Assembly (NCBI GenBank): GCA_044229975.1
Contig: JBGARZ010000009.1
Location: forward strand, 219,947-283,946
Direction of reading: 5' to 3'
Source of the DNA: Polyangiales bacterium
GTDB lineage: Bacteria; Myxococcota_A; Polyangia; Polyangiales; Ga0077539
Length of the DNA stretch: 64,000 nucleotides
The notes beneath the pieces are model-generated. The model did no database searches. It saw only the letters and a program-made list of their open reading frames with translations, and was not told the origin of the DNA. How positions within the stretch are numbered: position 1 is the first letter of the stretch; every line of letters begins with the position of its first letter. Positions 2,052-40,978 of this stretch are shown here, in pieces. The position numbers and the translations under genes were made by a program.

Positions 2052-2551
2052 CTACGCCCCGCCCCCACTCTCGCCGCGATGAAACACCTCGCTCCGCGCC
2101 GTGAGCCGCACCGCATACTCCTGCAGTTCCGCGCCGAGGATGCGCAGCGTCTCGCCCGCCGCGAAGGGTCCATGCACCACCGCCCCGTCGTCATCCCACA
2201 CCACAGGCAGCCGCCGCGCGCCCTGTGACGCCACGAACCCGTGCGCTCCGACGTCCTCGGGCACCCGCACCTCGACGTCGCCCCACCGCACCCCCACTCC
2301 CCGCAGCGCCTCTACGGACGGCAGCGCGCGCCAATGTTCGTCGCAGAACGGTCGCGTGTCGCACCAGGCACACTGGTCCCCCGTCCGCGTCGGCGCGGGT
2401 GTCTGTGCCACCGCCGCTCGCACGGCCTCGATGCGCGCCGCAAGGCGGTCTTCCAACGTCTCCAGCCGGGCCGCATCCACCCCGAAGACAGTGCTCCCCC
2501 GCGGGTGTCGCAGCGACAGCGCCACGGGCATGTCCCCCGTGCTGCGCCACC
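2052..2551 (-). pseudogene. C-terminal fragment of a Cas4-like PD-(D/E)XK nuclease, carrying the CxxCx5C cysteine cluster; separated from its N-terminal part by a transposon
   Basis: Translation RWRSTGDMPVALSL...TGDQCAWCDTRPFCDEHW. Reading frame continues exactly from the 6251..6934 fragment once the transposon and one TSD copy are removed. Confidence 0.65.
2545..2551. repeat. Target-site duplication CGCCACC, left copy
   Basis: Identical 7-mer CGCCACC directly flanks both transposon termini (2545-2551 and 6251-6257). Confidence 0.7.
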
Positions 2552-2576
2552 TGTTACCGGGCACGTTGGTTGATGG
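2552..2576. repeat. Left terminal inverted repeat of the transposon (TGTTACCGGGCACGTTGGTTGATGG)
   Basis: Matches the reverse complement of 6226-6250 at 19 of 25 positions, including the first 8 (TGTTACCG). Confidence 0.7.
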
Positions 2577-2750
2577 CGTAGTGCACCGGTTGGCTGATGG
2601 GCATCAACGGCGCGGCGCGATGACGCCCGTCGCTTGATGTCCATCGAGCCGACCGCGACTCGTTCGCCGTCTGCGCGATGGACATCATCGGGCGCGGCGG
2701 GGCGTCGCCGTAGGGCGATGGCCATCACCGTGGTGATGGAGTGGCAGCGA
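2566..2750. repeat. Subterminal array of transposase-binding-like repeats (motifs such as tgatggcgta, ctgatgggcatca, tgatgtccatcga, gatggacatcatcg, gatggccatcacc, gtgatggag)
   Basis: At least six copies of a GATGG(N)CATC-like motif within about 180 bp at the element end. Similar motifs recur at 5401-5428 and 6140-6200. Confidence 0.5.
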
Positions 2751-3052
2751 GCTTGAGGGAGATCAGAAAGGCAGGTCGTCGTGGTCGTCGTCGTGGCAGC
2801 GGCTCTCGCAGTCGACGGCGTCGCGGTAGCAGGCCAGCGCGCACAGCAGCGACTCCGCGTGCGCGATCACCAGGGTCGCCGCCTTCACCCGCAGCGCGCA
2901 GGCGACCGACCACGGCGCTGCGAGCTCGGGGTTGAGCGCCCGCGTCACCGCGATGGCGATGCGCAGCGTGTGCCCGAGGCCGTCCAGCACCGCGATCTCG
3001 GGCGACCCGCCGAGCACGGACGCCGACGCCCTGTCGTGGTCGCCACTCCCGT

Positions 3053-3880
3053 TCATCGATCGCCCTCCTCGCGCGAGGCGTCACTGGCCACCACCTGCCG
3101 CGCGACGGCGCGGTCCACCACGCGCTTGCCCTTGCGCGCCGCGGCGCGGAGCGCGTCGGTCGCCAGGCGATCGAGCTCGCGGTGTGCCCCCTGCGCCGCC
3201 TCGTGCAGCACGGCGATCGCGTCGTCGGCCAGGAGCTCGCTCGTGCACCCCACGCGCTCCAGCCGCAGCCGCAGGTAGGCCGCGCTGTCCTCGACGGTCA
3301 GCGGATCGATGCGTAGTCGGTGATGGAGGCGTGAGTAGAGCGAGCGGTTGATCCGTAGCGCGAGACGGTCGGCCAGCTCGGGCAGGCCCACGAGCACCAC
3401 CGAGAGCAGCGGGCGACGATCCCACTCGTAGTTGAGCAGGATGTGCAAGTGCGCGAGCGTGTCCTGGTGGAGCAGGTGGGCCTCGTCGAGGAGGAAGACC
3501 GGGTGCTGCCGCGACTCGCTCCCGAGCGCCTGCACGTCGGCGCTCACGGCGTGGAAGAGCGCCGCCGCGGTGGCCGACGGCGCGAGCCCGAGCGCGGTGC
3601 AGAGCTGGCGGTAGAAGTCGCGCCGGCCGAGCGTGGCGTTGTGGCAGTAGGTGAGCCGATAGCCCCGCTCGGGCAGCCGCGCCCGCATCGCCCGCAAGAG
3701 ACACGTCTTGCCCACGCCGGGCTCGCCCGTCAGCACCACCGAGGCGTGCTCGGAGACCGCCTCTTCGAGCGCCTGGCAGACCCCGAGCTTGGACGGCGGC
3801 AGCCACAGCGCGCGGTCGTCGAGGTCCTTGTGGAAGGGCGCCTCGCGCAACCCGAAGTGGCTCAGGTACGCGGGCGTCAC
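3053..3880 (-). CDS. Transposition ATPase, TniB/ExeA-like AAA (AAA_22)
   Basis: GTG start (VTPAYLSHFGLREAPF...) overlaps the TniA stop as GTGA. Walker A VLTGEPGVGKT, Walker B VFLLDEAH. The long N-terminal extension in the track ORF is a GC-rich open-frame artefact. Confidence 0.75.
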   Translation of the reverse strand: MTPAYLSHFGLREAPFHKDLDDRALWLPPSKLGVCQALEEAVSEHASVVLTGEPGVGKTCLLRAMRARLPERGYRLTYCHNATLGRRDFYRQLCTALGLAPSATAAALFHAVSADVQALGSESRQHPVFLLDEAHLLHQDTLAHLHILLNYEWDRRPLLSVVLVGLPELADRLALRINRSLYSRLHHRLRIDPLTVEDSAAYLRLRLERVGCTSELLADDAIAVLHEAAQGAHRELDRLATDALRAAARKGKRVVDRAVARQVVASDASREEGDR

Positions 3881-5289
3881 GAGCCCACCTCGGCGTCCAC
3901 GAGCGCCGCGTCGAGCGCGTCGCCGACGTCGTCGCCCAAGCTCGCGTTGGCCTTCGCGCGCGCCTGCTCCAGCAGGGCGCCCGCGGGGTCGAAGGGCACC
4001 CTCGCGCGCGGCGCCGTCGCGATGTGCTCGCGGCGCGCCGGACGCGGGCGCGTGGCGTTGGCCTTGGGGTCCACGCGGCGCAGGAGGTAGCGGTGCCCCT
4101 CGTGCTCGACCCACGGCGCCTCGGCGGGGTCGACCATGCAGCGCGCGACGGTCACCGTGCGCCCGGCGAGGAATCCCTGGTCGAGCTCCCAGGTGTGACC
4201 GGCCGCCGAGAGCGTGGTGTCCTTGCGCACGCGACGTGTCGAGCGGGCCGTGAGCGCCGTGCGCAGCGCCGCTTCGTCGAGGCGATCGACGGGACGCTCG
4301 GCGGTCGTCCACACGACGCCGGGCGAGCGGCCCATGAGCGAGGCGTGGGCGCTCGCGTGGTAGTGCTCCGAGAGGAAGGCGTTGAGCCTTGCCTGGAGGT
4401 CGTCGAGGGTCGCCAAGGCGCCGAGGTGGTCGAGGCAGCCCTGCCTCAGCGTGCGCCAGAAGCGCTCGATCTTGCCGCGCGCCTCGGGGTCGTAGGGCTT
4501 CGCGTGCACGAGCGTGATGCCCAGCCGGGCGCAGCACAGGCGCAGGATCTCGCCGCGGTAGGTCGACCCGTTGTCCAAATAAAGGACCTGTGGCGGGCCA
4601 TGGCGGCGCAGGGCGCGCACCAGCACGCCGAGCATGTCGACCTCGCGCTCGGTGGAGTGCACCTCCAGGGCGACGACGAAGCGCGAGGCGTCGTCGAGCA
4701 GGCCGTGCACCCGCACCGGCACCTTGTCGCCGCCGAGGGTGAGCGTGGGGCCGTGGCAGACGTCGCCGTGCCACAGGGCGCCGGGGCGCTCGGCCTCCCA
4801 GCGCAGCCGGGTGCGGGCGCCGGCGCCGTCGCGCATCGGGATGCGATCGAGCCCGTGGTCGGCGAGCAGCCGTCGCACGGTGGTCTCGGAGACCGCGCCC
4901 TCGGTGATGCGCCCGCTCGCGACGAGCTCGCGCAGGATGACGCTCGCGGTCGCCGCGGGGTGCTCGCGGCGGATGTCGAGCACCAGGTCACGCTGCGGCT
5001 CGGTGAGCTCGCGGGCGCGTCCGCGATCACTGCGCGGCTCGGGGCGCAGCGCTTCCAGGCCGCCCTCACGATGGGCGTACAGCCAGCGCTCCAAGGTCGG
5101 CAGACTGAAGGTGCGGGTGCGGGTCGCGCCCGGCGGGAGGAAGGTCTGCCTGGAGAGCGAGCGCATCTCGGCGCGCAGCTCGCCGCGGGCGAGGGTGCGC
5201 CGGGTGAGCGCGCCGATCACGCCGAAGCGGAAGAGGGCGATCTCTTCGCCGTGATCTCTGGGACGGATCTCGTGGTCATCGTTGGACAT
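3877..5289 (-). CDS. DDE transposase / integrase-core (rve) protein, TniA/Mu-like
   Basis: DDE triad context ALWHGDVCHG ... VLYLDNGSTYRG ... YDPEARGKIERFWRTL. Start MSNDDHEIRPRDHG at 5289; upstream in-frame extension judged spurious. Confidence 0.8.
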   Translation of the reverse strand: MSNDDHEIRPRDHGEEIALFRFGVIGALTRRTLARGELRAEMRSLSRQTFLPPGATRTRTFSLPTLERWLYAHREGGLEALRPEPRSDRGRARELTEPQRDLVLDIRREHPAATASVILRELVASGRITEGAVSETTVRRLLADHGLDRIPMRDGAGARTRLRWEAERPGALWHGDVCHGPTLTLGGDKVPVRVHGLLDDASRFVVALEVHSTEREVDMLGVLVRALRRHGPPQVLYLDNGSTYRGEILRLCCARLGITLVHAKPYDPEARGKIERFWRTLRQGCLDHLGALATLDDLQARLNAFLSEHYHASAHASLMGRSPGVVWTTAERPVDRLDEAALRTALTARSTRRVRKDTTLSAAGHTWELDQGFLAGRTVTVARCMVDPAEAPWVEHEGHRYLLRRVDPKANATRPRPARREHIATAPRARVPFDPAGALLEQARAKANASLGDDVGDALDAALVDAEVGS

Positions 5290-5413
5290 GGACGTCTCCT
5301 GCGCCGCGGCCGTGATGGGCGACGCGGAAGGAGCGGTAGCGGGGTCTGCCGCGCGGGGGAGGCGGCCCAACCGGGTGGGCCGCGGATCCCTCGGTGAATC
5401 AAGGCGATGGGCA

Positions 5414-6025
5414 TCATGGCGGGTGGCAGACGGCACGCGCGACGCGGGAGGGAATGGAGAGCGACTCGTCGGGGACGAGGGCCGCGAGGGTCATGGCGAC
5501 GCGCTCGGCGACGCGGCGCGAGGACCACTCGGCGGGCGACGGGCGCACGTCGGGGAAGAGCGTGGAGGCGATCGAGAGCCAGCGCAGGACCGAGTCCCAG
5601 CCGCGCGCCCCGTAGTTGCGAATGTGCGTTGGATTGAGCGCGCGGTAGACCGTGTCGAGCGACTGCCGAAGCGCGCCGTAGAGGGCGAACGCGAGGGCGA
5701 TGGTGACGGCGCCGAAGTGCTTGCGGGGGAGCACGTCGGCGGGCACGACGGTGGAGGTCGCGTCACACGCGGTGCAGCGGTAGCGGCGCGCGAAGAGCTC
5801 GTGGAAGGTCGCCGGCTCGTCGGGCGCGAGGACTCCGCGCACGGTGCGAGAGCGGAGCCCGTGACCATGGAGCACGAGAGGGCCGCCGGGCGGGGCGCTG
5901 GCGACGTGGCAGCACGGGGTGATGGGCGGTCGCGCGTCGTGGACGGTGGGGGGTCGGGCGATCCAGTCCTTGACGCAAAGCGCGAAGCGGACGACTCGTG
6001 GGGGGTCCCGGTGACTTTCTCCCAA
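5414..6025 (-). CDS. Hypothetical Cys-containing (zinc-ribbon-like) protein carried inside the transposon end region
   Basis: Strong GC3 codon bias on the minus strand. CCH...H ... CTAC motif (RRYRCTACDATSTV). No family assignment. Confidence 0.4.
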   Translation of the reverse strand: MGESHRDPPRVVRFALCVKDWIARPPTVHDARPPITPCCHVASAPPGGPLVLHGHGLRSRTVRGVLAPDEPATFHELFARRYRCTACDATSTVVPADVLPRKHFGAVTIALAFALYGALRQSLDTVYRALNPTHIRNYGARGWDSVLRWLSIASTLFPDVRPSPAEWSSRRVAERVAMTLAALVPDESLSIPSRVARAVCHPP

Positions 6026-6225
6026 GGCATCATCGGGGCCCGACGGGAGGGTGTTGGCGCACCGCTCCCGTCACCTTTTTCACTGGCCGACACAACGTCG
6101 CGGCCCGCTCCTGGGGCGCGACTACATCGCGGCGAGCGGCGAGCGCACGGGCAAACCGATGAGGGCCATCGTCGCGGTGGCGACCCCAGCACCATCAACG
6201 AGCCGGCGCGAAAGCGGGGCGCGAG

Positions 6226-6250
6226 ACCTCAACTCACGCGCTCGGTAACA
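6226..6250. repeat. Right terminal inverted repeat of the transposon
   Basis: Reverse complement TGTTACCGAGCGCGTGAGTTGAGGT matches the left TIR. Confidence 0.7.
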
Positions 6251-6257
6251 CGCCACC
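6251..6257. repeat. Target-site duplication CGCCACC, right copy
   Basis: See left copy. Confidence 0.7.
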
Positions 6258-6934
6258 AGAGCAGCGCATACAGTTGGAGCTGCTCTTCGTACTCGGGTCG
6301 CGGGTGACCCGTCTTGAAGTCCACCACGCAGGTACCTCCCGCGCCGAGCCGCAACATGTCGATCACGCCTCGCACCGGCAGTGTCGGGTGCGCCACCGAC
6401 CACTCCGTCAGCACGCCCTGCGCTCGCAGCCGCCGCAACGGGTCAACCTCTCCGCCGCCTCCCCCCTGGACCGAGACGATCGTCTCGGTCCCCTCGCGGT
6501 CGACGCTCGCGTACTCGCGCTGGAAGAGCGCGGCGACGCGGTTGTAAAGCGAGCGTGCGTCGTGGGGTAGCCGCAGCGCCGCGCGGCGCGGATGCCCGGC
6601 GAGCAGCGCGTTGGCCTCATCGATGCGCCGCTGGATCTCACCCATCACGTCGACCGCCCGCAGCGTGTGACGAAAGCCTTCGCTCCCCGGCGCCGGGAGC
6701 CCCGCGAAGGACAGCGCGCGGAACAGCCGGTCGAGCATCTCGTGCACGAGCGTTCCCTCTAGCGATGCCGCGTGCGGTCGCGTGGGGAAGCGCTCGAAGC
6801 CTGGCCACGACGAGCGCCGCAACTGCCACTGCCGCGGGCACTGCTCCAGTGTCCGCAGCGACGAGAAGCTCACGGTGCCGACGGTCGTCGCCCACGCCTC
6901 GGGCGCCGTCAGCCGGTGGAAGGGGTGGCTCACG
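6251..6934 (-). pseudogene. N-terminal fragment of a Cas4/RecB-like PD-(D/E)XK nuclease (motifs I-III and QxxxY), truncated by the transposon insertion
   Basis: LEQCPRQW (N-terminal Cys), GTLVHEMLD, GVIDML, VVDFKTG, QLQLYALL. GTG start overlaps the helicase stop (GTGA). The track ORF ends 6 codons into the transposon (..WWR|VTERVS*). Confidence 0.7.
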
Positions 6935-9900
6935 CGCTCCCTTCGAGCTTCGCCATCGCGGTCGGCAGCGCGTTCTCCAACGTCCACACGTCGAGCGTCA
7001 CCACCGGGAGCATGCGCGCCATGGCGGCGTCCATTACGGGCGTCGGCGAATGCTCGACGTCGACCAGTGGGTGATGGACCTCGACCCATGTCTCGCCGCC
7101 GTCTGGGAGGTCCACGATCAGCGGCACGTTGACCGTCCCGTCGCCCTCCGGCACGGCCTCCTCGCGATGGGCGATGCCGCGCAGCCGCAGCAGCTCACGC
7201 AGCGGCGCGATGGCCCGTTCCGCCGCGCCCACCTGCACGAGTGGGATCGCGCCTTCCGTGATCGCCGCGAGTAGCGAGAGCGCGAGTGTGCGATCGAGCT
7301 GCCCGTGGAGACGCTGGTTACCCCAATGGCGAAGGCAGCGGTAACACGACGCGGTGCAGTCGCAGCCAGCGAGCAGCTCACGGGTGGCGCCCAGCACCAG
7401 TGCGAGGTTCTCGCGGACCTGCCACGTGTAGCCCGCGCCGCCGGGAAGCAGGTCGTAGAAGTACACGTCGGCCTCGTAGGGGTCGCCGCTCGGGACGGGG
7501 TTCCAGTTGCCCGCGAGTTCACCCTCGTCGATCTGCAACGTGCGCGACGCGGCGAGGCCGATCGCCTCGACCAGCGACGTGAGTGCCGCCCGGCCCGCCG
7601 CACCCGATCGACCTGGCCGGTCCGCCACTGCGCAGTGCATCGGCGCCGTGAGCTTCACCCGCATGAGCAGAACGTCGGTCTTGAAGGTGTGCCCGAGGTA
7701 GAGCGGTCCGTCGCCCTGACCGCTGCACGTCACGCCCTCGCGGGTCGGGGGCGCGTGCACCTTCGAGGCGCCCTTGCCCGACAGCTTCGGGCTGCTGAAC
7801 CCGACACCCAGCGTGGGCTCGGCCAGTCCGCACGATCGGCAGATCATGAACCCGCGATCGCCGACACCCTTGTTCACCACGATGAGTTCACGAGCAGCGA
7901 CGCTCAGGCTCAGTCGTCCCGCGTAGCGGACCTCGTCCCAGTGATCGACGTGGGTCACCTCCAGCTTCGCGGGCGTGGTCTCGCCCGCGTACGAGACCGA
8001 GCCGCCGCGGTCGGGCTCGCGGCGCGCGTTGACGTCGGGCGCGAAGCCCTCCGGGCGCACGAAGGGGCGCTTGAGGAGGTCCGTGTTGCCGCACACCGGG
8101 CACGAGGCCAGCGCGCCCACCGCGAGTCCCCTGCCGACGTAGCCGCAGCCCCGACACGACGCGTACGGCGACTGCTTCGACAGGGTCTTCGCGACGTCGG
8201 GCTGGTAGGGGTTGTAGAGCGCCGCGGACACGAAGCGCTGGCCGTCGATGGTGAGGCTGCGGCCGGGCGCGTACTCGGTGAGCGCCACCTGGAGGTCGCG
8301 CTGCGGTTGATAGTCGAAGTCGAGCTTCCACTTCGGACCGCTCGCGCCCTTCTGCCGGTGCACCCAGAAGGCCACCGTGTCGGTCGGAAACGCGTAGCGC
8401 GGTAGGATCGCCCGCTCGATCAGCATCTGGAGGAGGTTCTCGTCGAGCCGGAGTTTGCGCGCCGTTTGCGCGGCCTCGTCCTGCGCCTCGTCCGCGGGTG
8501 CCTCCGTCGGTGGCAACGCGTCGCGCATCCGCAGCGTCAGCTCCTGAACCGCTCCGTCGAGCGCGGCATCAACGTCGAGCGCCTCGCGCGCGCCGTGCGA
8601 GAAGCTCGGCACCCACCGCCGCAGCTCCGCGAGCAGGCGCGCCTCGTGCGCGGCGAGCCAGGACTCCATCCGCACCAGGGAACACGGCTGCGCGGCGTCG
8701 AGGAAATCGCGCACCGTGCCCATGCTCTCGAAGAGCGCGTGCGCCGCCACCCCGCTCGGGACCTTCTCGTGGAAGAAGCGCTGCACCAGCCACGCGAAGG
8801 CGTGACGCCGCAGCACCCGGGTGTTCTCGACGTAGACCACGGGCGAGCGCACCGCGCCCGACACGATGCGCGTCGGGTCGTCGTAGTACCAGGCGTCGTG
8901 CGACCCGCCCTGCGCGTAGGTCACCACCGAGGCGATGGCGCGGCCCCGGCGGCCCGCGCGGCCGGCCCGCTGCTGGTAGTTGGCCACGTGCGGGGGGACG
9001 TTGCGCAGCGCCACACCGACAAGCGCGCCAATGTCGATGCCCACCTCCATGGTGGTCGTGCACGAGAGCACGTCGATGGGTGGCGCGTTGTCGATGCGGA
9101 GGTCCTGGAAGCGAAGCTCGTATCGCTCGGTGAGGTTGAAGGCCTGGTCGTCGTCGCCGAGACCAGTGAGCTGTGCGGTGTGCTCCTTCACCGTAAGGCC
9201 GAAGGGCTCGAGCGAGGTGCCGTCGAGCGCGCGCAGCACGGCGTCGCGGTAGTATCCGACCCGGGCTGAGAGCACCGCGCCGTCGGCAGGCAGGAGTTCG
9301 CCGCCGCAGTCGTCGCAGGCGCGGCCGAGGGTGTCGGCGTGCATGCGGTAGCAGCGCCCGCACATCCACCACGGACCTTCCGGGCGGAGGTTCATCGTGA
9401 GCAGTGAAGGCCCGAGGAAGTGCTGGTTGTTGATGAAGTGGAACATCCCGCTCCTGGGCAGGGACTCGAACCACTTCGTGACCGCGGCGCGCGCCGCTTC
9501 GTCCTCGACGAGAGTGCGGAGGTGCTCCTGGAAGCGCTGCGGGAGCAGGTCGAGCAGTTTGCCCGGGTTGATCCCGGCCGGCCTCTGGAACTCCTCGCCG
9601 AGACGCCCCGGCGACGCGCCCGGCGGCAGGAAGCAGCGGCGCTCGAGCTGCACGCGCATCCAACGATCGAGCAACGAACGGGTCTCGTCCGGCGAGAGCA
9701 CCCCCGCGGGGAATCCCTTGAGCAGCATCGCGGCCATGCGCGGGTCGACGATGTACTGCGCCACCCCGAGCTGCGAGAGCGACAGGAAGCGTTCGGTCAG
9801 CTCGCCGAAGAGCGCCTGCGCAAAGGCCTCGGGTTGCTGAAGCGAGTACGAGATCTGGAGGATTTGCGGGAGCGACATCGTCGCGGCGAGCACGAGGTGC

Positions 9901-12731
9901 CGGTGCCACTCGCCGGTCGGGTCGCCTTCCGGGAAGAGGTCGACGCTGCGCCTCGCACAGACATGCAGCACCGCCGGGTACAGGAGCCCGATTGAGGGCA
10001 CGTCGCCCTGCGACTCCAGGGTTCGCGCGGCGAGCACCAGCACCTGGCGGAAGGCATCTTGCGCGTGCCCGATGGCGAGCGCCGGCGCGAGGCGGGCGGC
10101 CTTCTGCCGACCATCGCTGAAGACCAGCACCTTGCGTCCGTGGTTGGGCAGGTCGGGTCGTGCGTCCTGCGGCGGCTGCTCGGCGAACTGCGTCTCCACC
10201 AGGGCGGTGAAGGGCTGTTCGCCGCGCGTGCGGTGGTCCTTGATGCGCCCCCGGCGCTGCGAGCCGGGCGGCTGACACGCCGGGCAGACCGGAAACTCCG
10301 CGGCCCGGCGGTCGTCGACCCGAGCCATCCACAGGTCGCGCACCTCCGCCGGCGGGAGCGTGTGCCCCGCATCGAGGAGCTTGCCCGTGCTGAGCTGTAC
10401 CGTGACCACCTCGGCGTCGTGCCCCGGCCGCGGGTCTCCCGGCAGTAGCTGCACCTGCACACCTTCCTCTTCGGCCGCCTCGCCCCAGAGGAAGTCCCAT
10501 TCGGACAGGTCGTGCGTCGGTGCATACGCGAGGCAGTACGCCCCGCCGCACTCGCGGCACGATGCGATCTCGAAGACCCGCGAGCGGCAGGCGTCGCAGA
10601 AGGTTCGCGCTGCCGTGAAGAGCTTGCCGAGCGGCGCGAACTCCCCGGGGTCGCACTGCCGACCCTCGCACCGCGGGTTCAGGCAGGCGTGCAGTCCGTC
10701 GATGCCACGGAACATCAGGTGGATGCGTGTCGGCAGCAGCCCCGGCTCGTCGGGCTGCGGGCGCGCGATGGCCCCAAGCGTAAGCAGGACTTCGGTAGCC
10801 TTGCGTGCGGTCGGCGCTCCCGGGAAGACCCGATCGGCGAGGGCGCCCAGCGCCACAGCCTGCGCCGAAGTCTCGTGAAGCACCTGCTGGAGAAAGGGCT
10901 GCGGCGAGAGCAGGCCGTGCAGCGACGCCACCAGCGCGGTCTCGTCGCCCGCTGGCATGGTGTGTCCGAGGTGCGCGAACAAGGGTGCAAGCACTGCCCC
11001 GAGCGCGTCGCTGGTGCGCGCGACGTGCAGTGCCTCCAGGTCGATGGCGGCGAGCACGTCGGCGGTTGCCGCGTCGCCGGGTCGCGGGCCCCTCGCCGCC
11101 TGGCGATGACCGGTGACGACCTCGAAGCCGTCGGGCGCGAGGCCGGTGAGGTCGGCCGCGAAGCGCCGCGCGACGTCCACCGCGTCGCCGCCGCCGAGCG
11201 AGGCGCTGGTGGCGATCATCGAGACCTTCTCGGGGCGGTCGATCACGCCGAGCCGGTCGAGGAGTCGGCGGATGAGGAACGCGACCTCCGCCCCCTTCGC
11301 CCCGCGGTACATGTGCGCCTCGTCCAGCACCAGCAGGAACCGGCTCCCCGGCTCTTCGAGCCAGCGCCGCGTCTCGTCGAAGATGGGCCGCTCGAAGGGG
11401 CGCATCAGCATGTACTCGAGCATCGAGTAGTTGGTGATGAGCACGTCGGGCGCGTTGCCCTGACCGGTCTCAGCGTCACAGACCATCTCCTGGCGAGTGA
11501 GCAGCTCGCGGTCGCCGTCGGCCGTGAGCAGCCGCCGCTCCCAGTTGTGCTTAGTGAACTTCTTCCCCTTCTTCTTGCCGCTCTTGTACTCGGCGGGCGC
11601 GGCCTGGTCGGCCGCGAGGAAGGCCGCGAGGTCCTTGGAGGGGTAGCGACCAAGGGTCTTCAGATGCGCCGCGAGCGCGGGCTCGTCGGTCTCCAGCGTG
11701 CGGTACCAGTTGAGCAGCGGAACCACGCGCTCGCGATCCTTGGTGGCGTCGCGCGGACCCGCGTAAGGCGTGCGGCCCGTATACATCCCGAAGGTCGGGT
11801 GACGGCCCGCGCCCGTGTCGTCGCGGAAGTCGCGCGCGAAGCCCTCGTCGCCGATCAGCCGTCGCAGGCGCGACACCTGGTCGTTCACCAGCGCGTTCAT
11901 CGGATACAGGATGAGCGCTCGGACGCCGCGCCTCTTCCAGGTCACTGGCGAGATGCGTGCCTCCTCATGGAGCTGCCCCACCATCGGCAGGAGGAAGCAC
12001 TCCGTCTTGCCCGACCCGGTGCCCGTCGCCACCACGAGGTTCTTCCGCGCGGGCCCGAGGAAGCCCTCGAGCGCCGCCGCCTGGTGCGCGTAGAGTGATG
12101 GGTAGATCAGCGCGCGGCGCCCCTCGGCGGCGCGAGAGAGCGAACCGAGGAAGGCCCTCGTCTTCGGGTCGATGCGCAGGTCGTCGAAGCCACCGCGAAA
12201 CTCCGTGTACCGCGGCGTGGTCTCGACGAAGGGCTCTTGCGCGAGGAGGTGCCCGTTGACGTCGGTCTCGAGCAGGGTGCGCCGCGCCTGCACGAGGCGC
12301 GGATCGTTGAGCGGCCACGCGGCCTCGAGGTAGCGCGTGAGCTGGCGCCGGAGCTGCGAGCTCAGCCGCGACGGCGTGTACCGCTCGTGCTTCGTGTCCA
12401 CGGACTCGAAGCGCAGCACCGGCGCCGGCGCCGCGGGCATCTTCTCGCGGGCAGCAGGGCGCGCGACCGGTGGTGCCGACGTCCGATCGAGCCAGCGCAC
12501 CATCGTGGCCTCGACGTCGGGGCACATCCCGCGGAAATCCATCTCGCCCAGCGACTCGGTCGAGCGCCCGCGCAGCAGCTCGTCGAGGAAGCCCAGCGTC
12601 ACGCTGACGACCCCGTCGAACTCCAGCGCGGTCGCGCCACCCATACGGTTCTCTCGCGCGAACGCGGCGTTCTTCACGTCGCGCAGCGTGTCGTCGTCGT
12701 CGGTAAACTTCGCCAGCTTCACGACGCTCAC
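6930..12731 (-). CDS. Giant SF2 DEAH-box helicase (about 1933 aa) with internal Zn ribbons and a C-terminal DUF1998/MrfA-like domain; DruE-like or fused DrmA-DrmB-like
   Basis: Walker A LVVATGTGSGKTECFLLP, DEAH box LVLDEAHMY, motif VI QRAGRAGRRG, multiple CxxC ribbons (CDACRS..CRECGG; CRGCGY..CPVCGN), terminal DUF1998-type CDCTASCYRCLRHWGNQ. Real start taken as GTG (VSVVKLAKF) overlapping the upstream stop; the first ~160 codons of the track ORF are a GC-frame artefact overlapping the UvrD-like gene. Confidence 0.8.
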   Translation of the reverse strand: MSVVKLAKFTDDDDTLRDVKNAAFARENRMGGATALEFDGVVSVTLGFLDELLRGRSTESLGEMDFRGMCPDVEATMVRWLDRTSAPPVARPAAREKMPAAPAPVLRFESVDTKHERYTPSRLSSQLRRQLTRYLEAAWPLNDPRLVQARRTLLETDVNGHLLAQEPFVETTPRYTEFRGGFDDLRIDPKTRAFLGSLSRAAEGRRALIYPSLYAHQAAALEGFLGPARKNLVVATGTGSGKTECFLLPMVGQLHEEARISPVTWKRRGVRALILYPMNALVNDQVSRLRRLIGDEGFARDFRDDTGAGRHPTFGMYTGRTPYAGPRDATKDRERVVPLLNWYRTLETDEPALAAHLKTLGRYPSKDLAAFLAADQAAPAEYKSGKKKGKKFTKHNWERRLLTADGDRELLTRQEMVCDAETGQGNAPDVLITNYSMLEYMLMRPFERPIFDETRRWLEEPGSRFLLVLDEAHMYRGAKGAEVAFLIRRLLDRLGVIDRPEKVSMIATSASLGGGDAVDVARRFAADLTGLAPDGFEVVTGHRQAARGPRPGDAATADVLAAIDLEALHVARTSDALGAVLAPLFAHLGHTMPAGDETALVASLHGLLSPQPFLQQVLHETSAQAVALGALADRVFPGAPTARKATEVLLTLGAIARPQPDEPGLLPTRIHLMFRGIDGLHACLNPRCEGRQCDPGEFAPLGKLFTAARTFCDACRSRVFEIASCRECGGAYCLAYAPTHDLSEWDFLWGEAAEEEGVQVQLLPGDPRPGHDAEVVTVQLSTGKLLDAGHTLPPAEVRDLWMARVDDRRAAEFPVCPACQPPGSQRRGRIKDHRTRGEQPFTALVETQFAEQPPQDARPDLPNHGRKVLVFSDGRQKAARLAPALAIGHAQDAFRQVLVLAARTLESQGDVPSIGLLYPAVLHVCARRSVDLFPEGDPTGEWHRHLVLAATMSLPQILQISYSLQQPEAFAQALFGELTERFLSLSQLGVAQYIVDPRMAAMLLKGFPAGVLSPDETRSLLDRWMRVQLERRCFLPPGASPGRLGEEFQRPAGINPGKLLDLLPQRFQEHLRTLVEDEAARAAVTKWFESLPRSGMFHFINNQHFLGPSLLTMNLRPEGPWWMCGRCYRMHADTLGRACDDCGGELLPADGAVLSARVGYYRDAVLRALDGTSLEPFGLTVKEHTAQLTGLGDDDQAFNLTERYELRFQDLRIDNAPPIDVLSCTTTMEVGIDIGALVGVALRNVPPHVANYQQRAGRAGRRGRAIASVVTYAQGGSHDAWYYDDPTRIVSGAVRSPVVYVENTRVLRRHAFAWLVQRFFHEKVPSGVAAHALFESMGTVRDFLDAAQPCSLVRMESWLAAHEARLLAELRRWVPSFSHGAREALDVDAALDGAVQELTLRMRDALPPTEAPADEAQDEAAQTARKLRLDENLLQMLIERAILPRYAFPTDTVAFWVHRQKGASGPKWKLDFDYQPQRDLQVALTEYAPGRSLTIDGQRFVSAALYNPYQPDVAKTLSKQSPYASCRGCGYVGRGLAVGALASCPVCGNTDLLKRPFVRPEGFAPDVNARREPDRGGSVSYAGETTPAKLEVTHVDHWDEVRYAGRLSLSVAARELIVVNKGVGDRGFMICRSCGLAEPTLGVGFSSPKLSGKGASKVHAPPTREGVTCSGQGDGPLYLGHTFKTDVLLMRVKLTAPMHCAVADRPGRSGAAGRAALTSLVEAIGLAASRTLQIDEGELAGNWNPVPSGDPYEADVYFYDLLPGGAGYTWQVRENLALVLGATRELLAGCDCTASCYRCLRHWGNQRLHGQLDRTLALSLLAAITEGAIPLVQVGAAERAIAPLRELLRLRGIAHREEAVPEGDGTVNVPLIVDLPDGGETWVEVHHPLVDVEHSPTPVMDAAMARMLPVVTLDVWTLENALPTAMAKLEGSA

Positions 12732-14826
12732 GCCGACACCTCCTGGATGTTCCAACCGCTTGCGTCGAGCGCACCGAGCGCGGGGTCGCTCCAGCCCTTC
12801 GGCTGCAATACCAGCAAGCCCCTCATCGCGCGGGTCATGCCCACGTACAGGAGCCTCCGGTGGGTGCGCATCGCCTCCTCGAACTCCTCCGTCGTCGCGA
12901 AGGCCTCCAGCACGGGGAAGCTCCCCGGGCGCAGGCCCGCGATCACCACCATCGGAAACTCCAGTCCCTTGGCCGAGTGCAGCGTGAGCACCTTCACGAC
13001 CGGCTCGCGCAGGTCGAGCTCGCGCCCCGGGAAGTACCGCGCCGCCACGCCCTCTCGCTGGAGCGCCGCTGCCAGCGCCGCGCCCGCCTCCGCGTCGGGC
13101 ACCAGCACCGCCGCGGTCTGTACCTGCAGCGCGAGGTGCTGCGCCATCTGCCGGAGAAAGCGCGCCGCCCATTTCCCCTCGTCGACGGGCGCGAGGCCCC
13201 TCGCGAGCACCGGCCACGGCCCCGACTTGGGGCTCTCCGACGCCTCCGGCGCGTCACCCGCATCGAGCAGCGCGAAGGCCGCCCGGTCGATCTCCGCTGT
13301 CGAGCGGTAGTTGCGAGCGAGCAGCGCCGTGCGCCCCTTGAACTGGAGCCGCGGGTGCGCGCTCGCGAAAGTGTAGTTGCGCGAGTAGAGCGACTGCTTG
13401 CTGTCGGCCGCGAGGAAGATCCCCTCCGGCGTCGCAGCTAGCTCGGCCAGGAGTGCGAGCGAGGCAGGCGACAGGTCCTGGGCCTCATCGACGACGACGT
13501 GGTCGTAACGACGCCCCCCGAGGCCAGCACGCACCCGTGCGAGCGCCTCTCTCCGCAGGTCGCTCCAGGTCTCCAGCTTCGCGAGCGCCAGGTCCTCCTG
13601 GAAGGCCACCCGCAGCGCCCACACCGTCGTGCGGAGCTTCTCGCCGAAGACGATCCCGCGGCCGGGTCGTGGCGCCGCCAGGTACTCGTCGAGCGTCGCC
13701 AGTTCGCGACCCTCGATCACCCACTCGAACTCGTCGAGCAGGTACTCGTCGGTGACGCCCGCCAGCGCCTTCGCCCGGAGCTTGCGCTCGAAGGCGCTCG
13801 GTCCGGGCGCCTCGAAGCTCGCGCGCAGGTCGCGCAGGCGTCGCCGCAGCACCGAAGCGTCCGCGAAGGGCCCCAGCGCCCGCGACGCCGCAACGATCTC
13901 ACGCGCGACGGTGTCGCAGGTCGCGACCCGCACCCGCTTGCGCTGATCGGGTGTCAGGAGCTGGTCGAGAAGCTGCCCGGTCGCCCGCTCGAGGGCCCGC
14001 GTGTACGTGGTGAAAAGCACCGTCTCGTCGCCGCGGGCGCCCTTCTGCTCGAGCACCGACTTCACACGGTAGAGGGCCACCGTGCTCTTGCCGGTGCCCG
14101 CGCCGCCCTTCACCAGCGTTGGGCCCTTGAGCGCCCAGCGGGTGAGCCGCTCCTGCTCGGGGTCGAGCTTCAGCAGGAACGCGATGAGCTCCCCCTCGGT
14201 GTACCGCACGAGGTCGTTCGAGTGCCGTACCACCAGGTCTGGCTGCGCGATCACCTCGTTGATCGGCCGGGGAAACAGCGCCTCCAGGACACGCTCGGCC
14301 ACGTCGGCGGGCACCAACGCGTCGAGGAGGTCGTCCTCGCTGCGACACCGCAGCAGCGCCGAGTGGTGGACCGGCTCAACCTTCAACTGCGCGAGCCACT
14401 CGGCGGTGACGGGCCGCGGCAGGGTGCGCCCCGCCTTCGTCGCCTTCGCATCGAAGTGGAACGTCGGCGCCTCGGCGCGGGCGAGCGCGGCGTCGAGGGC
14501 GTCATCGTCGACCTCGCGACCGGTGGGCTCTGGAGCGTCGGCCGTGACGCCGTCGATGCCGTCACGGTACGTGCGGTCGTCGCGCTTGCGGATCGCGAGC
14601 AACCGGATCCACGCCTCGCCGAAGGTGTAGAAGACGCGGTGATCGCCGACGCGCAGGCGGTAGATGTCGTCCTTGCCGACGAGCTTCTTCTTAAGCTTCC
14701 CATCGGGCAGCGGGTCGTCCGTGAGGAACCCGATCTTCTCCCAGAGCACCCCGGTCTTGTCGGGCGGAAAGGCGTTGAGCTCCCGCAGGAAACTCGGCTT
14801 CAGGTTCAGCTCTCGTCTCGTCGCAC
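12728..14826 (-). CDS. RelE/ParE-like toxin domain fused to a UvrD/Rep-type SF1 helicase
   Basis: N-terminus KPSFLRELNAFP...YRLRVGDHRVFYTF..IRLLAIRKRDDRTY (RelE/ParE fold signature). Then GGAGTGKST, DEAQD, NYRST, LTLHSAKGLEFPMVVIAG, LLYVGMTRA. GTG start overlaps the upstream stop (GTGA). Confidence 0.75.
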
Positions 14827-15831
14827 TCACGCCGTCACCCCCGACTCGTCCACTGCCATCCCCAACCGCGCGGACAACATCTCCCCCAACTCCGGCCAGG
14901 TCTCCGCCGGTACCGCGTAGCGCGCGATCCCATCGGCCGATTCGAGGCGATCGCCCACTCCCAACAGATACCGGTACTCCGCCCTCGGGATCCGACCGGG
15001 CACCGACACGGTGACCACATCGCCGGGCGTGGTCGTCGCCGTCACCGTGCGTCTCACCCCCGCCCTCGCCTCGACGGCCAGCATGGTGCGTGTCGCCTCG
15101 TCGCCCGTGAGCGCGCCCGTCCCCTCCTCGGTGCGCCACGCGTAGCGGTACCACCCACCGGGCTGTCGCAGCCGCTCGAGCCGCGGCAGCCCGACGTCGC
15201 TCCCTTCCGGGCGGCGCCACCGCCCGCGGTCGCCGTAGACCACGAACACTGCGAGATCCCGCTCATCGTCCCCCGCCGCCGCCTCGACCCGCCGCGACGC
15301 CAGCGTCTGCCACCATGCAGCCAGCGTCGGTGGCGCACGGTCGAGGCCCGCCCACACCGCGACCTCGATCACGCCACCACCGAGCGATGCCATGGCGCGC
15401 GCGAGCCCTACCCGGTCGTGGTGTCGCAGCATCATCTGCCTCACCCGCCCCCGCAGGATGTTCTCCTGAGGTAGCGCCGCCGCGAGCACCGAGGTCGGGA
15501 CGCTTCCCATGAGCAGCACGACCCGACTGTTGCCCACGACGGCTGCGCGCAGCGGGGCCGCCCCGACCAGCCCGCCGTCACCCACGAGCGCATCGCCCAC
15601 GCCGTCGAGCGCATCGATCACCTCGTGGATGCGCTCGCGCCGCGCGTCTTCGTCGGGCACGTCGTGCCAGCGCAGAACCCGATCGACCAGTGTGCGCCGA
15701 CGGATGCTGCCCTCAGCCGCGAGGTGCACGCGTATCGTCTCGCGCCATGCGTCGTCCTCGTCGGCGCCCATCCAGCAGACACCTGACGCCGCGGCCCGCT
15801 CGGTCAGCTCCTCCGCCGCCACGACCCTCAT
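14827..15831 (-). CDS. Hypothetical protein of the defence operon (334 aa)
   Basis: ATG 3 nt after the upstream stop; stop overlaps the next start. High GC3. No recognisable motif. Confidence 0.5.
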   Translation of the reverse strand: MRVVAAEELTERAAASGVCWMGADEDDAWRETIRVHLAAEGSIRRRTLVDRVLRWHDVPDEDARRERIHEVIDALDGVGDALVGDGGLVGAAPLRAAVVGNSRVVLLMGSVPTSVLAAALPQENILRGRVRQMMLRHHDRVGLARAMASLGGGVIEVAVWAGLDRAPPTLAAWWQTLASRRVEAAAGDDERDLAVFVVYGDRGRWRRPEGSDVGLPRLERLRQPGGWYRYAWRTEEGTGALTGDEATRTMLAVEARAGVRRTVTATTTPGDVVTVSVPGRIPRAEYRYLLGVGDRLESADGIARYAVPAETWPELGEMLSARLGMAVDESGVTA

Positions 15832-15834
15832 CGC

Positions 15835-18039
15835 CTACCTCCACGCCCCGTAGCGAACCAGGAACCCCTCCAGACCTTCATCCTCGTGGATGATCCCTTC
15901 GAGCGAATCCGCGAGAGGCGCGGCGGACCTTCGCACGTCGAGCGACCACCAGCGACGACCGTCCGAGACGATCGCGCGCGTGAGCCCCAGCGCCCCACAC
16001 AACGCCTCCAACGCCAATCGTACCGAGCCCTCCTCCCGCCCGCGCAGGCTCGCGTCCGATCGCACCAGCACCAGCAGCGCCGACGCCTGCACCCGGTACG
16101 CGCCCCCCTCCTCCAGGACGTCCTCCATGATCGCCGCGCACAGCTCCGGCGCCACGCGCCGCGCAGCCATCGGCAGTTCTCGCACGCCATAGCCCAGGGC
16201 CGCGCCGGCTGGGTGCGCCCACATCGCCAGCGCCAGGCTCGCGTCGAACGACCCCTGGGCGGCCAGCAGCGCGGCTGCGTCGAGCGACCGGCGCAGGCCG
16301 TCACGCGCCGTCGCGAGGGCGTGGTCGATCCGTTGGACGTGACGCAGCACCACCGTCCCTGATTCGCCGAGGTCGATGATCATCGCGCCCACGGGTGCCG
16401 CCTCGCGGAGGGAGCGCGTTCGCGCGATCACCACTGCGGTCGGCACCTCGCCACTCTCGTCGGCGCAGAGTGCCCCGGAGTCCCAGCGCAGCGCACCATC
16501 CCAGCGCACGCGCACTGTCGCCGCGGGCGGTGCGTGGATCGACCACGCAAGCATCCCCCCGAGCGCCGCGAGGTTCTCCTCGATCACGTCACCGCCACGC
16601 AGCGTGCGCCCGCCCAGGAGTACCGCCGGGGCCTCCGTCGGCCAGCGTCCCCGAGCTGCGTCCTCGATCGCGAACACGAGGCGCTCGGGCGACAGCGCGA
16701 GGTCCGCCGCGGTGACCTCCAGCAGATACCGCCCGGCCGCGAGTCCTTCCAACGCGAGCTCGGCGCGCGCGGTGGTCGCGAGCTCGAGCCGCTCCAGGTG
16801 ACCGTTTCCATGCAGAAAGACCACGAGGTCGTTGCGGGGGTTCGACGCCGACACCCGCACCACGGGAGGTGCCTCCGTTGTGAACACAGGGAAGCGCTGG
16901 CCCCGCGGCGTCGTGTCCCAGCGGACGGGCGGCGTGAGCACCCACTGCGCGCACAGCGCCTGCGCCGCGACTGAGAGCCCCACCGTCGCCAGCAACGCGA
17001 CCAGCGTCGCGTCGGGGGCCGCCGGGATCTGCACCGACCAGAGGCGCCACCCCTCGTCGAGCGCCGTCACTCCACCGTCCAACGTCAGCGCGAGCGACGG
17101 CGGAACCAGCACCGCATTGCGCCCGCCAGGAGACAGCATCGCGCCCGCGAGTCTCTGGGTCGGACCCTCCACGTCGCCCCGGAAAACCGTCGGCCGCTCG
17201 GAGACCAACCCCTCCGGCGTCATCGATGAGAGCAGCGCGGCGTAGGTGGCGTCGTCGTCTACATCCCCGGTGCTCCACGTCACCATTCCGCCTGGAGTGC
17301 CCACCGCGAGGCGCGCCCCGACACGCGCGAGGTTCTCCCGGCGCACCGCCCGATCGGCGCCCAACCCCTTCAGCGCGAGCGTCTTCACGAATGGCGCGAA
17401 GCCGTCGCACGGCGCGCAACACAGCCACAGCGCCAGCCCGCCATCGTCGCGTGCCGCGACCTCGTACCAGCCTCGCACCTCGGCCCCGGGTGGCTCCTCC
17501 CCTTCGCCGTCGACCGGAGGCTCGAGCGTCATGGTCCGCTCGTCGAAGGCCCGGGTGATGAGCAGCTCCAGCCGCCGCGCGACCCGCACCTCATCCAACG
17601 CCCGCAACCTCGTTGGCTCACGCAGGACCTCGACCTCGTCGTCCCCCCGCTCAGCGCTCGCGGACTGCCCGGCCTCGACGGGGCCAACCTCGCCCGCATC
17701 CGACGTCGGCAGCGCGCTGATTGTCACTGCCTCGCCCCGGGCCAACGCCGCGAGTTCGCGCATCCACTGGCCCCGCGCCGCGCGAATCGCCGCCTCTTCG
17801 CACCCGTCCAGGCGCGGCAGCACGAGCGCGCCGCCCTGCTGCATCACTTCCGCCACGACGGACGCCGTGAGTTCGCCATGCCGCGCCAGCAGGGCGACGC
17901 ACTCCTCCGCTCCGTGCCACATCAGCCGCGCCGGGCGCCCGCTGGCGCGGTGCAGCGCGAGCGCCCGGCGGCGGGCGAGCTCCCGCTCGGCGGAGGCCAG
18001 CCGGGTCACCAGCGTTCGCGCGACATCGTCAGAAGACAT
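15835..18039 (-). CDS. Hypothetical protein of the defence operon (734 aa)
   Basis: Long minus-strand ORF, 15 nt downstream of the DUF499 gene, tight coupling to the next gene. No recognisable catalytic motif. Confidence 0.5.
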   Translation of the reverse strand: MSSDDVARTLVTRLASAERELARRRALALHRASGRPARLMWHGAEECVALLARHGELTASVVAEVMQQGGALVLPRLDGCEEAAIRAARGQWMRELAALARGEAVTISALPTSDAGEVGPVEAGQSASAERGDDEVEVLREPTRLRALDEVRVARRLELLITRAFDERTMTLEPPVDGEGEEPPGAEVRGWYEVAARDDGGLALWLCCAPCDGFAPFVKTLALKGLGADRAVRRENLARVGARLAVGTPGGMVTWSTGDVDDDATYAALLSSMTPEGLVSERPTVFRGDVEGPTQRLAGAMLSPGGRNAVLVPPSLALTLDGGVTALDEGWRLWSVQIPAAPDATLVALLATVGLSVAAQALCAQWVLTPPVRWDTTPRGQRFPVFTTEAPPVVRVSASNPRNDLVVFLHGNGHLERLELATTARAELALEGLAAGRYLLEVTAADLALSPERLVFAIEDAARGRWPTEAPAVLLGGRTLRGGDVIEENLAALGGMLAWSIHAPPAATVRVRWDGALRWDSGALCADESGEVPTAVVIARTRSLREAAPVGAMIIDLGESGTVVLRHVQRIDHALATARDGLRRSLDAAALLAAQGSFDASLALAMWAHPAGAALGYGVRELPMAARRVAPELCAAIMEDVLEEGGAYRVQASALLVLVRSDASLRGREEGSVRLALEALCGALGLTRAIVSDGRRWWSLDVRRSAAPLADSLEGIIHEDEGLEGFLVRYGAWR

Positions 18040-23919: not shown

Positions 23920-23947
23920 CACAGGGTGAATGGTCGCATGCGGACGC

Positions 23948-24478: not shown

Positions 24479-24528
24479 TTCAACGCTCGGAAGATGGTAA
24501 ACGACGACGCCCGCGGATTGTACCGCTG

Positions 24529-27144: not shown

Positions 27145-27147
27145 GCG

Positions 27148-40946: not shown

Positions 40947-40978
40947 CCGATGGCCACCCGCAGCGTCAATGGCGGTGT

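Follow-up and report, generated by a model that had tools for sequence, protein, structure and literature searches.

ARMADA defence systems were first described in 2025, and to our knowledge the mechanism of Druantia type I is not known. Here we describe a locus with likenesses to both, in a stretch of 64,000 nucleotides (nt) from a Polyangiales bacterium (GenBank assembly GCA_044229975.1, contig JBGARZ010000009.1, positions 219,947 to 283,946), which as a whole is called the window below. It has about 70% G+C, and every gene discussed is on its minus strand. Our subject is a pair of adjacent helicase genes: one encodes a RelE/ParE-like domain fused to a UvrD-type helicase of superfamily 1A (SF1A), here called RelE-UvrD, and the other a giant helicase of superfamily 2 (SF2), DruE.

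ARMADA type II consists of ArmA (a BrxHII-like SNF2 helicase), ArmB (a PglX-like methylase), ArmC (a YprA helicase) and ArmD (Bell et al. 2025, PMC12458937; bioRxiv 10.1101/2025.09.15.676423). All four genes, armD included, are needed; the Walker A mutation K266A in ArmD kills defence, and the system is non-abortive, protecting without growth arrest or membrane damage (PMC12458937). On the Druantia side, type III DruE is a 3'-5' double-stranded DNA helicase activated by 3' overhangs (10.64898/2026.05.12.722862), and the DruE proteins of types I and II are predicted to carry an inactivated Vsr nuclease domain (PMC12458937). Bell et al. also ascribe an inactivated McrB/CnuB-like component to these two types. 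RelE toxins cut mRNA at the ribosomal A site, and the 2025 survey of multidomain RelE/ParE proteins by Gerdes mentions no helicase fusion (PMC11980606).

We find that RelE-UvrD and DruE are neighbours within a conserved five-gene cassette. Each of the two is of a known kind, an ArmD-like RelE-UvrD helicase and a DruE; the combination of genes in the cassette is the new part. The five-gene cassette appears to be undescribed in the literature searched and in PADLOC 2.0.

Two coupled helicase genes

A first-pass annotation, made from the DNA letters alone, had placed two back-to-back helicase genes at 6930-14826. Both genes are there, but the upper end lies 4 nt further on, at 14830, because the RelE-UvrD start overlaps the stop of the gene upstream. 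The peptides it quoted for the RelE-like region (YRLRVGDHRVFY...IRLLAIRKRDDRTY) and for the DUF1998 end (CDCTASCYRCLRHW) are found in the 700-amino acid (aa) and 1933-aa proteins, respectively. The translational coupling that it proposed is confirmed by a GTGA overlap (gcGTGAgc, 12728-12731) with an AGGAGG 8 nt upstream. A second such overlap (14827-14830) joins the DruD-like gene to the RelE-UvrD gene, and a third (6930-6933) joins DruE to the downstream Cas4-like gene. The giant open reading frame (ORF) is a single gene, whose homologs in at least 30 loci align from residue 1 to about residue 1930; that it might be two genes or an assembly artefact is ruled out by these same-length homologs and by an independent Logan contig, which has an identical 700-aa RelE-UvrD protein and an unchanged gene order. 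As for the description of the two genes as a tandem, their adjacency is real, but they are not a free-standing pair: they occupy the middle of the five-gene cassette, together with a DruD homolog, a protein that we call p734, and a Cas4-like nuclease.

The smaller protein has an SF1A, UvrD-like helicase core, as had been predicted. Pfam finds UvrD-helicase (1.9e-17), UvrD_C (1.6e-17), AAA_19 and, below threshold, ParE_toxin. The core motifs are intact (GGAGTGKS with K248, VVVDEAQD with D448/E449, KQSLYS, NYRST, HSAKGLEFP and YVGMTRA), and the motif residues, including those of Walker A and Walker B, are invariant across 103 family sequences. A full-length AlphaFold2 (AF2) model (mean predicted local distance difference test score, pLDDT, 89; predicted template modelling score, pTM, 0.86) gave UvrD, PcrA and Rep as its best Foldseek matches (E ~1e-21), and the PADLOC matches are to GajB models, on the helicase core (E=5e-27), and to 'NERD+UvrD'. 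Between the RelE-like domain and the core lies a helical middle domain without a Pfam match; in a MAFFT alignment, ArmD and the cyanobacterial relatives discussed below are in register with it. The family is conserved end to end. A database search with RelE-UvrD returned 984 matches; the best 120 of these, from Myxococcota, Proteobacteria, Chloroflexota and others, are 680-720 aa long, with 97-100% query coverage and 51-100% identity. Some homologs carry the JGI name 'superfamily I DNA/RNA helicase / mRNA-degrading endonuclease RelE', and the family is also found on plasmids.

The fusion had been taken to lie outside described systems, a claim that is out of date because one preprint (Bell et al. 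2025) describes ArmD of ARMADA type II, which has the same architecture. Our ArmD reference was WP_000218177.1 (704 aa), taken by coordinates from SpLE6 of E. coli O157:H7 Sakai; a tblastn search of plasmids did not retrieve ArmD. The two proteins are of nearly the same length (704 versus 700 aa), and both begin with a RelE-like domain, which is followed by a helical linker and then by a UvrD core like that of GajB. Their helicase cores are 28% identical (E=1e-45), their PADLOC match profiles are identical, and each is encoded beside, and co-directionally with, a giant YprA-family helicase. MAFFT aligns the N-terminus and linker of ArmD in register with the RelE-UvrD family. An hhalign comparison of the ArmD N-terminus with the family profile was non-significant, the RelE-like domains being too diverged, so that the homology of these domains rests on their shared position, on the fold evidence for the window domain, and on the HHpred match given in the paper.

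The RelE/ParE-like domain

The N-terminal domain of RelE-UvrD is a RelE/ParE fold, as the first-pass annotation had suggested. Used as a single sequence against PDB sequences it had a sole match, the archaeal RelE (aRelE) 1wmi, at E=0.055; a profile of 19 family N-termini (A5) matched aRelE 1wmi at E=1.2e-6, RelE3 (3bpq) at 0.031 and M. tuberculosis RelE1 at 0.18. The domain alone scores 22.8 bits on Pfam PF05016, just below the 23-bit cutoff, and PF05016 is recorded for several RelE-UvrD homologs. Its pLDDT was 80-87 in one model and 89-95 in the full-length model.

Among the 103 family members, which extend down to 32% identity, P40, R58, R60, R65 and Y68 of this domain never vary, and the conservation of K47, K48 and R83 is 90% or more. 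In the HMMER alignment the conserved basic residues fall on R58, R65 and R85 of aRelE, residues that Takagi and colleagues reportedly found in 2005 to be needed for its activity. With an approximate sequence of E. coli RelE, hhalign gave only a weak match (E=0.003, probability 10%), in which R58, R65, R81, R83 and Y88 fall on K52, R61, R81, R83 and Y87. Searched by itself among 1.84 billion representatives, the domain was found in 367 representative clusters (E<=1e-3), many of them of about 690-710 aa and many others short proteins, and it is therefore a specialised subfamily and not an ordinary toxin of a toxin-antitoxin (TA) pair. No antitoxin gene was found beside RelE-UvrD, whose neighbours, the DruD homolog and DruE, overlap it by GTGA and leave no space for a small ORF.

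DruE and its N-terminal extension

That the giant protein is a DruE, as had been proposed, is well supported: PADLOC DruE1 matches it with 1495.8 bits over profile positions 4-1771 of 1776. PADLOC DruE3 scores far below DruE1, and no protein scanned around DruE matched the model of DruH, the partner of DruE in Druantia type III, where DruE has C-terminal PLD domains. Pfam finds DEAD (1.7e-18), Helicase_C and MZB (DUF1998, 1.8e-12), and the translation contains GTGSGKTE, DEAH, several CxxC pairs and a C-terminal CDCTASCYRC. A DEAH-box core and a C-terminal four-cysteine DUF1998/MZB region in one polypeptide are the hallmark of the YprA/MrfA family. The C-terminal 110 aa have no Pfam match.

For comparison with Druantia type I we used the locus of R. 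solanacearum pUW163a (L076), which is annotated with DruA. The window DruE is 35% identical to the canonical DruE of this plasmid over 1846 columns, full length. The alignment begins with canonical residue 18 at about residue 126 of the window protein, which thus has an additional N-terminal segment. The only hint as to its family is a non-significant one to a DUF4325/STAS-like domain (E=0.22). This extension might dock the RelE-UvrD partner.

A conserved five-gene cassette

Scanning a single genome of each species yielded 72 loci, and relatives of RelE-UvrD are present in L001-L046. A Druantia-like group among them (L001-L031, L040, L042 and L044) comes from Myxococcota, Beta- and Gammaproteobacteria, Desulfobacterota, Acidobacteriota and Planctomycetota. 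In the 31 loci counted as Druantia-like, where the DNA extends far enough, the gene order is p734 family, DruD homolog, RelE-UvrD, DruE, and Cas4-like iron-sulfur (Fe-S) nuclease.

Of the 39 loci with 2 kb or more of DNA beyond RelE-UvrD, tblastn shows 38 to have a DruE/YprA helicase directly after it. In the Druantia-like loci the two genes are 0-9 nt apart, with one exception (51 nt, in L026); in the cyanobacterial loci the distance is about 0.4-0.5 kb. In at least eight phyla, RelE-UvrD is coupled, tightly and translationally, to a DruE that resembles the type I protein. The Cas4-like PD-(D/E)xK nuclease (about 390 aa, with CX2CX5C) comes after DruE in 24 of the 25 loci with room for it.

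Upstream of RelE-UvrD, nearly all Druantia-like loci have the DruD homolog. Its relationship to DruD is supported, weakly but consistently, by the L004 ortholog (PADLOC DruD1, 6e-13) and by the family profile A3, which hhalign aligns with canonical DruD of pUW163a at 94% probability (E=1.2e-7, 259 columns); against PDB sequences the same profile gave spurious Kelch matches only. Homologs of p734 occupy the corresponding place in related loci whose DNA extends to it, and only 3 word-sharing homologs were found in a database of 5.8 billion proteins. We considered whether p734 might be a DruB or DruC, but hhalign comparisons with canonical DruB and DruC were negative. A p734-like region occurs twice in some loci, namely L007 (1895-9015) and also L008, L011, L012 and L040; one copy is in an 864-aa protein, and the other is in the C-terminal half of a protein of about 1500 aa with a sacsin/TmtA-like N-terminus. 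This marks the p734 core (aa 204-570) as a mobile domain with variable N-terminal additions.

What the cassette lacks, compared with Druantia type I, is three genes. On none of the neighbouring proteins scanned was there a PADLOC or Pfam match to DruA (DUF4338), DruB or DruC, and tblastn with the canonical three found nothing in the window or the 72 loci. As a positive control, DruA-DruD of pUW163a scored 508-854 bits on the PADLOC type I models (674-854 for DruA, DruB and DruC). Since PADLOC 2.0 would call DruE only, and DruD weakly, such loci are likely filed as incomplete Druantia.

An interrupted nuclease gene

In this genome a transposon interrupts gene 5 of the cassette, the Cas4-like nuclease. 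By tblastn, intact homologs of this nuclease align to the window in two pieces, 6927-6244 and 2549-2076. The element between them has the inverted ends TGT...ACA, and CGCCACC, a target duplication of 7 bp, stands on either side of it at 2545-2551 and 6251-6257. When 2552-6257 (the element plus one repeat copy) is excised in silico, a single ORF results that is 62% identical to the L002 homolog over 419 aa. The first Cys and the DFK and QLQLY motifs are in the 5' fragment; of the four Fe-S cysteines, three are separated by the insertion from the catalytic core (DFK/QLQLY). It is very likely that the nuclease of this genome is inactive, and because its gene is split, the local copy of the cassette is probably non-functional or impaired. 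Intact cassettes are available in L007 (Ramlibacter cellulosilyticus USB13 contig13), L011 (Myxococcus sp. 1LA), L006 (Sorangium sp. So ce176) and L004 (a marine proteobacterial MAG).

Upstream modules and the surrounding island

The cassette lies within about 36 kb of co-directional defence genes, which include Hma genes, RdrA/B-like genes and a PDC-M09B-like gene. HmaC is co-directional with the cassette and ends 15 nt from gene 1; its N-terminal Swt1-like HEPN (RNase) domain is a second predicted RNase domain in the array, besides the RelE fold. HmaB and HmaA are 17-25 kb upstream, with other genes between. HmaA is also matched in tblastn by E. coli ArmA (29% identity, E=8e-23).

Other genomes have other genes in this place. 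Hma genes are directly upstream of the cassette in L002 and L028 too (HmaC), McrB/McrC genes take their place in L004, L018, L007 and L011, and L006 has a type III methylase with a helicase that is weakly type III restriction-enzyme-like. This variation fits the cassette as an exchangeable 'back end' behind self/non-self modules, and the gene order suggests that it may serve modification or restriction modules of several kinds in this way. The proposal of the first-pass annotation, that the helicase pair is the effector arm of the system, is plausible in the same sense, with Hma, McrBC or type III restriction-modification (R-M) modules upstream in different genomes; it too is a reading of gene order.

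Several further genes of the array may be noted. Between HmaB and HmaC, at 24529-30831 (-), are genes for a 1227-aa ATPase with a weak match to RdrA (E=6e-9) and for an RdrB-like protein of 871 aa (E=1.5e-26); the pair resembles RADAR and is nested inside the Hma system. Just upstream of HmaC, at 21509-24108 (-), are overlapping genes for proteins of 383 and 483 aa, of which the second matches the PADLOC candidate PDC-M09B (E=7e-14) and the first matched no family. Further upstream, at 38373-42133 (-), are encoded a protein of 857 aa whose C-terminal region is protein-kinase-like (PADLOC mad6, PD-T4-6) and a 384-aa HNH protein, so that the defence island extends past HmaA.

Table 1. Features of the cassette and of the genes around it, in window coordinates.
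Feature	Position	Strand	Description and basis
HmaA (SNF2 helicase, DrmD/BrxHII/ArmA-like)	35223..38345	-	PADLOC HmaA 849 bits, DrmD 303 bits
HmaB (DUF1156 N6-adenine DNA methyltransferase)	30896..33757	-	PADLOC HmaB 1127 bits; Pfam DUF1156
HmaC (HEPN_Swt1 + DUF499 ATPase)	18055..21399	-	PADLOC HmaC 993 bits; Pfam DUF499, HEPN_Swt1
Gene 1, p734-family protein	15835..18039	-	734 aa, 15 nt downstream of HmaC
Gene 2, DruD homolog	14827..15831	-	334 aa; PADLOC DruD1 E=1.5e-8
Gene 3, RelE-UvrD	12728..14830	-	700 aa; GTG start overlapping DruD-like stop; ArmD-like
RelE/ParE-fold domain (aa 1-95 of gene 3)	14546..14830	-	profile search, AF2 model
Helical middle domain (~aa 125-200 of gene 3)	14231..14458	-	pLDDT >90; helices at 143-194
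UvrD/SF1A helicase core (aa 220-700 of gene 3)	12728..14173	-	Pfam, Foldseek, motifs
Gene 4, DruE	6930..12731	-	1933 aa; GTG start; YprA-family SF2 helicase with DEAH and DUF1998/MZB
DruE N-terminal extension (~aa 1-115)	12387-12731	-	conserved in Druantia-like loci, absent from canonical type I DruE
Gene 5, 5' fragment, Cas4/AddB-like PD-(D/E)xK nuclease	6251..6933	-	GTG start overlapping DruE stop; Pfam PDDEXK_1 6e-16
3.7-kb transposon within gene 5	2552..6250	.	terminal inverted repeats TGTTACCG.../...CGGTAACA
DUF6431 protein of transposon	5414-6025	-	domain search
rve transposase of transposon	3877-5436	-	domain search
AAA_22 TniB-like ATPase of transposon	in ORF 3053-4774	-	domain search
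Gene 5, 3' fragment, Cas4-like C-terminal part	2052..2551	-	CX2CX5C iron-sulfur cysteines (CAWCDTRPFC); PADLOC DruK 2e-5

Proposed function

On homology and gene neighbourhood, we consider it probable that RelE-UvrD and DruE serve as genes 3 and 4 of a five-gene anti-phage cassette, a variant of Druantia that would act as a DNA-targeting helicase-nuclease defence. Such a variant would keep DruD and DruE as in type I, dispense with DruA, DruB and DruC, and employ an ARMADA-type RelE-UvrD partner. DruE would load on phage DNA ends or forks and unwind them 3'-to-5', as type III DruE does, and the SF1A motor of RelE-UvrD would be an obligatory second ATPase beside it, as ArmD is in ARMADA type II. 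The Cas4-like nuclease would cleave DNA; if the Vsr domain of DruE is inactive in types I and II, as predicted, a nuclease encoded apart from DruE would be in keeping with that. DruD and p734 may be adaptors or sensors, and the co-directional upstream module (Hma here, McrBC or type III R-M elsewhere) may give self/non-self discrimination. The least certain step concerns the RelE domain, which we picture as an RNA-engaging module with conditional RNase activity and not as a dead scaffold. We lean this way because basic residues with which RelE toxins engage RNA appear to be kept, and the invariance of the basic cluster argues against a mere scaffold. Even so, we put an RNA-engaging, possibly catalytic domain at slightly short of an even chance, and a domain that only binds at a somewhat lower one.

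Several observations weigh against this reading. E. coli ArmD is without several of the basic residues (R58 is replaced by S and R81 by D), so that the sole tested relative does not support a catalytic role, and in enterohaemorrhagic E. coli (EHEC) the deletion of armD has the mildest phenotype among the four genes. The absence of an antitoxin is ambiguous, since it fits a non-toxic domain and intramolecular control equally. The cassette is not universal: one locus (L041) has no YprA helicase downstream of RelE-UvrD, and another (L012) has no Cas4-like gene. Finally, p734 had no match in Pfam, PADLOC, NCBIfam or the profile search of PDB sequences; since neither a fold nor a family can be recognised in it, any role given to it is conjecture.

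A possible objection is that the toxin-like domain is the true effector. RelE would then be a ribosome-dependent mRNA endonuclease, which the helicases, upon sensing phage DNA, would release to stop translation in an abortive response. Such a design would make sense of a RelE/ParE fold whose conserved basic residues align with those of RelE toxins, which cleave A-site mRNA as noted in the introduction, and the same array has a HEPN RNase domain on the N-terminus of HmaC. We nevertheless think it unlikely. ARMADA type II, the sole tested system with this fusion, is non-abortive; the domain has no antitoxin and is borne by an SF1 DNA helicase whose Walker A is essential in ArmD; and the cassette regularly includes a gene for a DNA nuclease of its own, which points to DNA degradation as the main output. 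The divergence of ArmD, the non-abortive behavior of ARMADA type II and the milder armD deletion phenotype in EHEC together argue against a classic suicide toxin. A different simplification makes the domain an exapted, non-catalytic one, which would clamp nucleic acid or give DruE or DruD a surface to dock on, with the protein as a whole being a motor subunit of the GajB/UvrD type. The domain is permanently fused, without an antitoxin, in a compact full-length model (pTM 0.86) that is consistent with a fixed structural role, and the 367 representative clusters describe a specialised subfamily; ArmD has lost several basic residues yet is required, and the non-significant hhalign result between ArmD and the family N-termini implies that divergence is tolerated. 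This explanation has to contend with the fact that the most conserved residues are not confined to the core but are Arg and Lys of the surface type, at positions that align with the RelE active site, which suggests at least binding of a phosphate backbone, and we hold it to be rather doubtful, if less so than the abortive toxin.

It might also be said that the genes have no link to defence and are a housekeeping pair for DNA repair, a UvrD paralog with a repair helicase of the MrfA/YprA type. The best structural matches of the smaller protein are indeed UvrD, PcrA and Rep, and YprA/MrfA is a repair helicase family. However, the larger protein scores 1496 bits on DruE1 and has the architecture of the defence branch, the genes are inside some 36 kb of co-directional defence genes, the distribution is patchy over at least eight phyla with variable flanks, and the family is also on plasmids; we regard a repair pair as highly improbable. 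The Druantia variant with a DNA-targeting output is the reading that we retain. The cassette offers a natural minimal set for asking what DruD and DruE do, where the nuclease activity comes from, and whether a RelE RNase can work within a DNA-targeting system. It is not a categorically new system, and the copy in the window is disrupted; it should be useful for dissecting Druantia type I and ARMADA.

Comparison with known systems

The likeness to ARMADA type II extends from ArmD to the neighbourhood, since an SNF2 helicase and an adenine methylase are upstream in both (ArmA and ArmB there, HmaA and HmaB here). The differences are several. In ARMADA type II ArmD comes after ArmC, whereas here RelE-UvrD precedes DruE, so the strict ARMADA order is not kept. 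ARMADA type II is marked by a YprA helicase of the ARMADA clade with an active Vsr nuclease at its C-terminus, whereas the window helicase matches DruE1 best. To ArmC the window DruE is only 24% identical, in local stretches, against the full-length 35% to type I DruE. HmaB is of the DUF1156 type and not PglX-like, and is split from the cassette by other genes; tblastn with ArmB found nothing in the window, which has no PglX-like gene. ArmD is without equivalents of R58 and R81, and the window cassette adds the DruD homolog, p734 and the separate Cas4-like nuclease.

The cyanobacterial ARMADA loci (L033, L036, L043 and L075) come closer in gene order. Their RelE-UvrD proteins are 35-36% identical to that of the window over the full length and are encoded immediately before the YprA helicase, as here. 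They differ in having ArmA-like SNF2 and ArmB-like genes upstream, in a helicase that falls in the ARMADA clade, and in being without a DruD-like, p734 or Cas4-like gene. The helicases of two of these loci are entered as 'ARMADA Type I' in Table S1 of Bell et al. One cyanobacterial locus (L075, a plasmid of Pseudanabaena sp. ABRG5-3) has, at 21795-30112 on the minus strand, another giant helicase (DEAD/DEAH, 2082 aa), whose gene converges on the ARMADA-like operon; it is preceded by hypothetical proteins of 310 and about 900 aa and has no UvrD gene of its own. This second array may be a cassette of the DruD/DruE type without the fusion helicase.

With Druantia type I the window shares a DruE of the same PADLOC subtype, a DruD homolog upstream of DruE, and a multigene co-directional operon. 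In place of DruA, DruB and DruC, however, it has the unrelated p734; RelE-UvrD stands between DruD and DruE; DruE carries the extra N-terminal segment of about 115 aa; and the Cas4-like nuclease comes after it. In type I the canonical DruE is followed by a 367-aa protein that has no PADLOC match, and for which tblastn finds nothing in the window or the other loci.

More distant comparisons concern single parts. Like GajB of Gabija, RelE-UvrD is a UvrD-type SF1A motor in a defence setting, and like AddAB and AdnAB, which are among the Foldseek matches, the cassette combines an SF1A motor with an iron-sulfur RecB-family nuclease. In contrast to Gabija, AddAB, RecBCD and AdnAB, the nuclease here is a separate small protein and the second motor is an SF2 YprA helicase, not one of SF1; no OLD-family nuclease like GajA was found among the neighbours scanned. 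The resemblance to GajB and to AddAB/RecBCD/AdnAB is best described as a functional analogy only. RelE/ParE type II toxins (aRelE 1wmi, RelE3 3bpq, HigB, YafQ and YoeB) are part of two-gene TA modules, whereas the domain here is without an antitoxin and fused to a 600-aa helicase.

Taken together, RelE-UvrD accompanies three clades of the ARMADA-Druantia helicase lineage, and such a motor is not peculiar to ARMADA type II. Tentatively, and with clearly less than even confidence, we put forward a wider view, in which the window cassette would be an unnamed Druantia subtype that links ARMADA with type I, RelE-UvrD would be an ancient and recurrent partner of the whole ARMADA-Druantia YprA clade, and the cassette would form a two-motor SF1 and SF2 machine with an Fe-S nuclease behind varied front ends, its RelE domain coupling DNA sensing to RNA or the ribosome. 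Within this lineage the position of RelE-UvrD shifts from system to system: it comes after ArmC in ARMADA type II; in cyanobacterial ARMADA it precedes the helicase, and in the window it precedes DruE.

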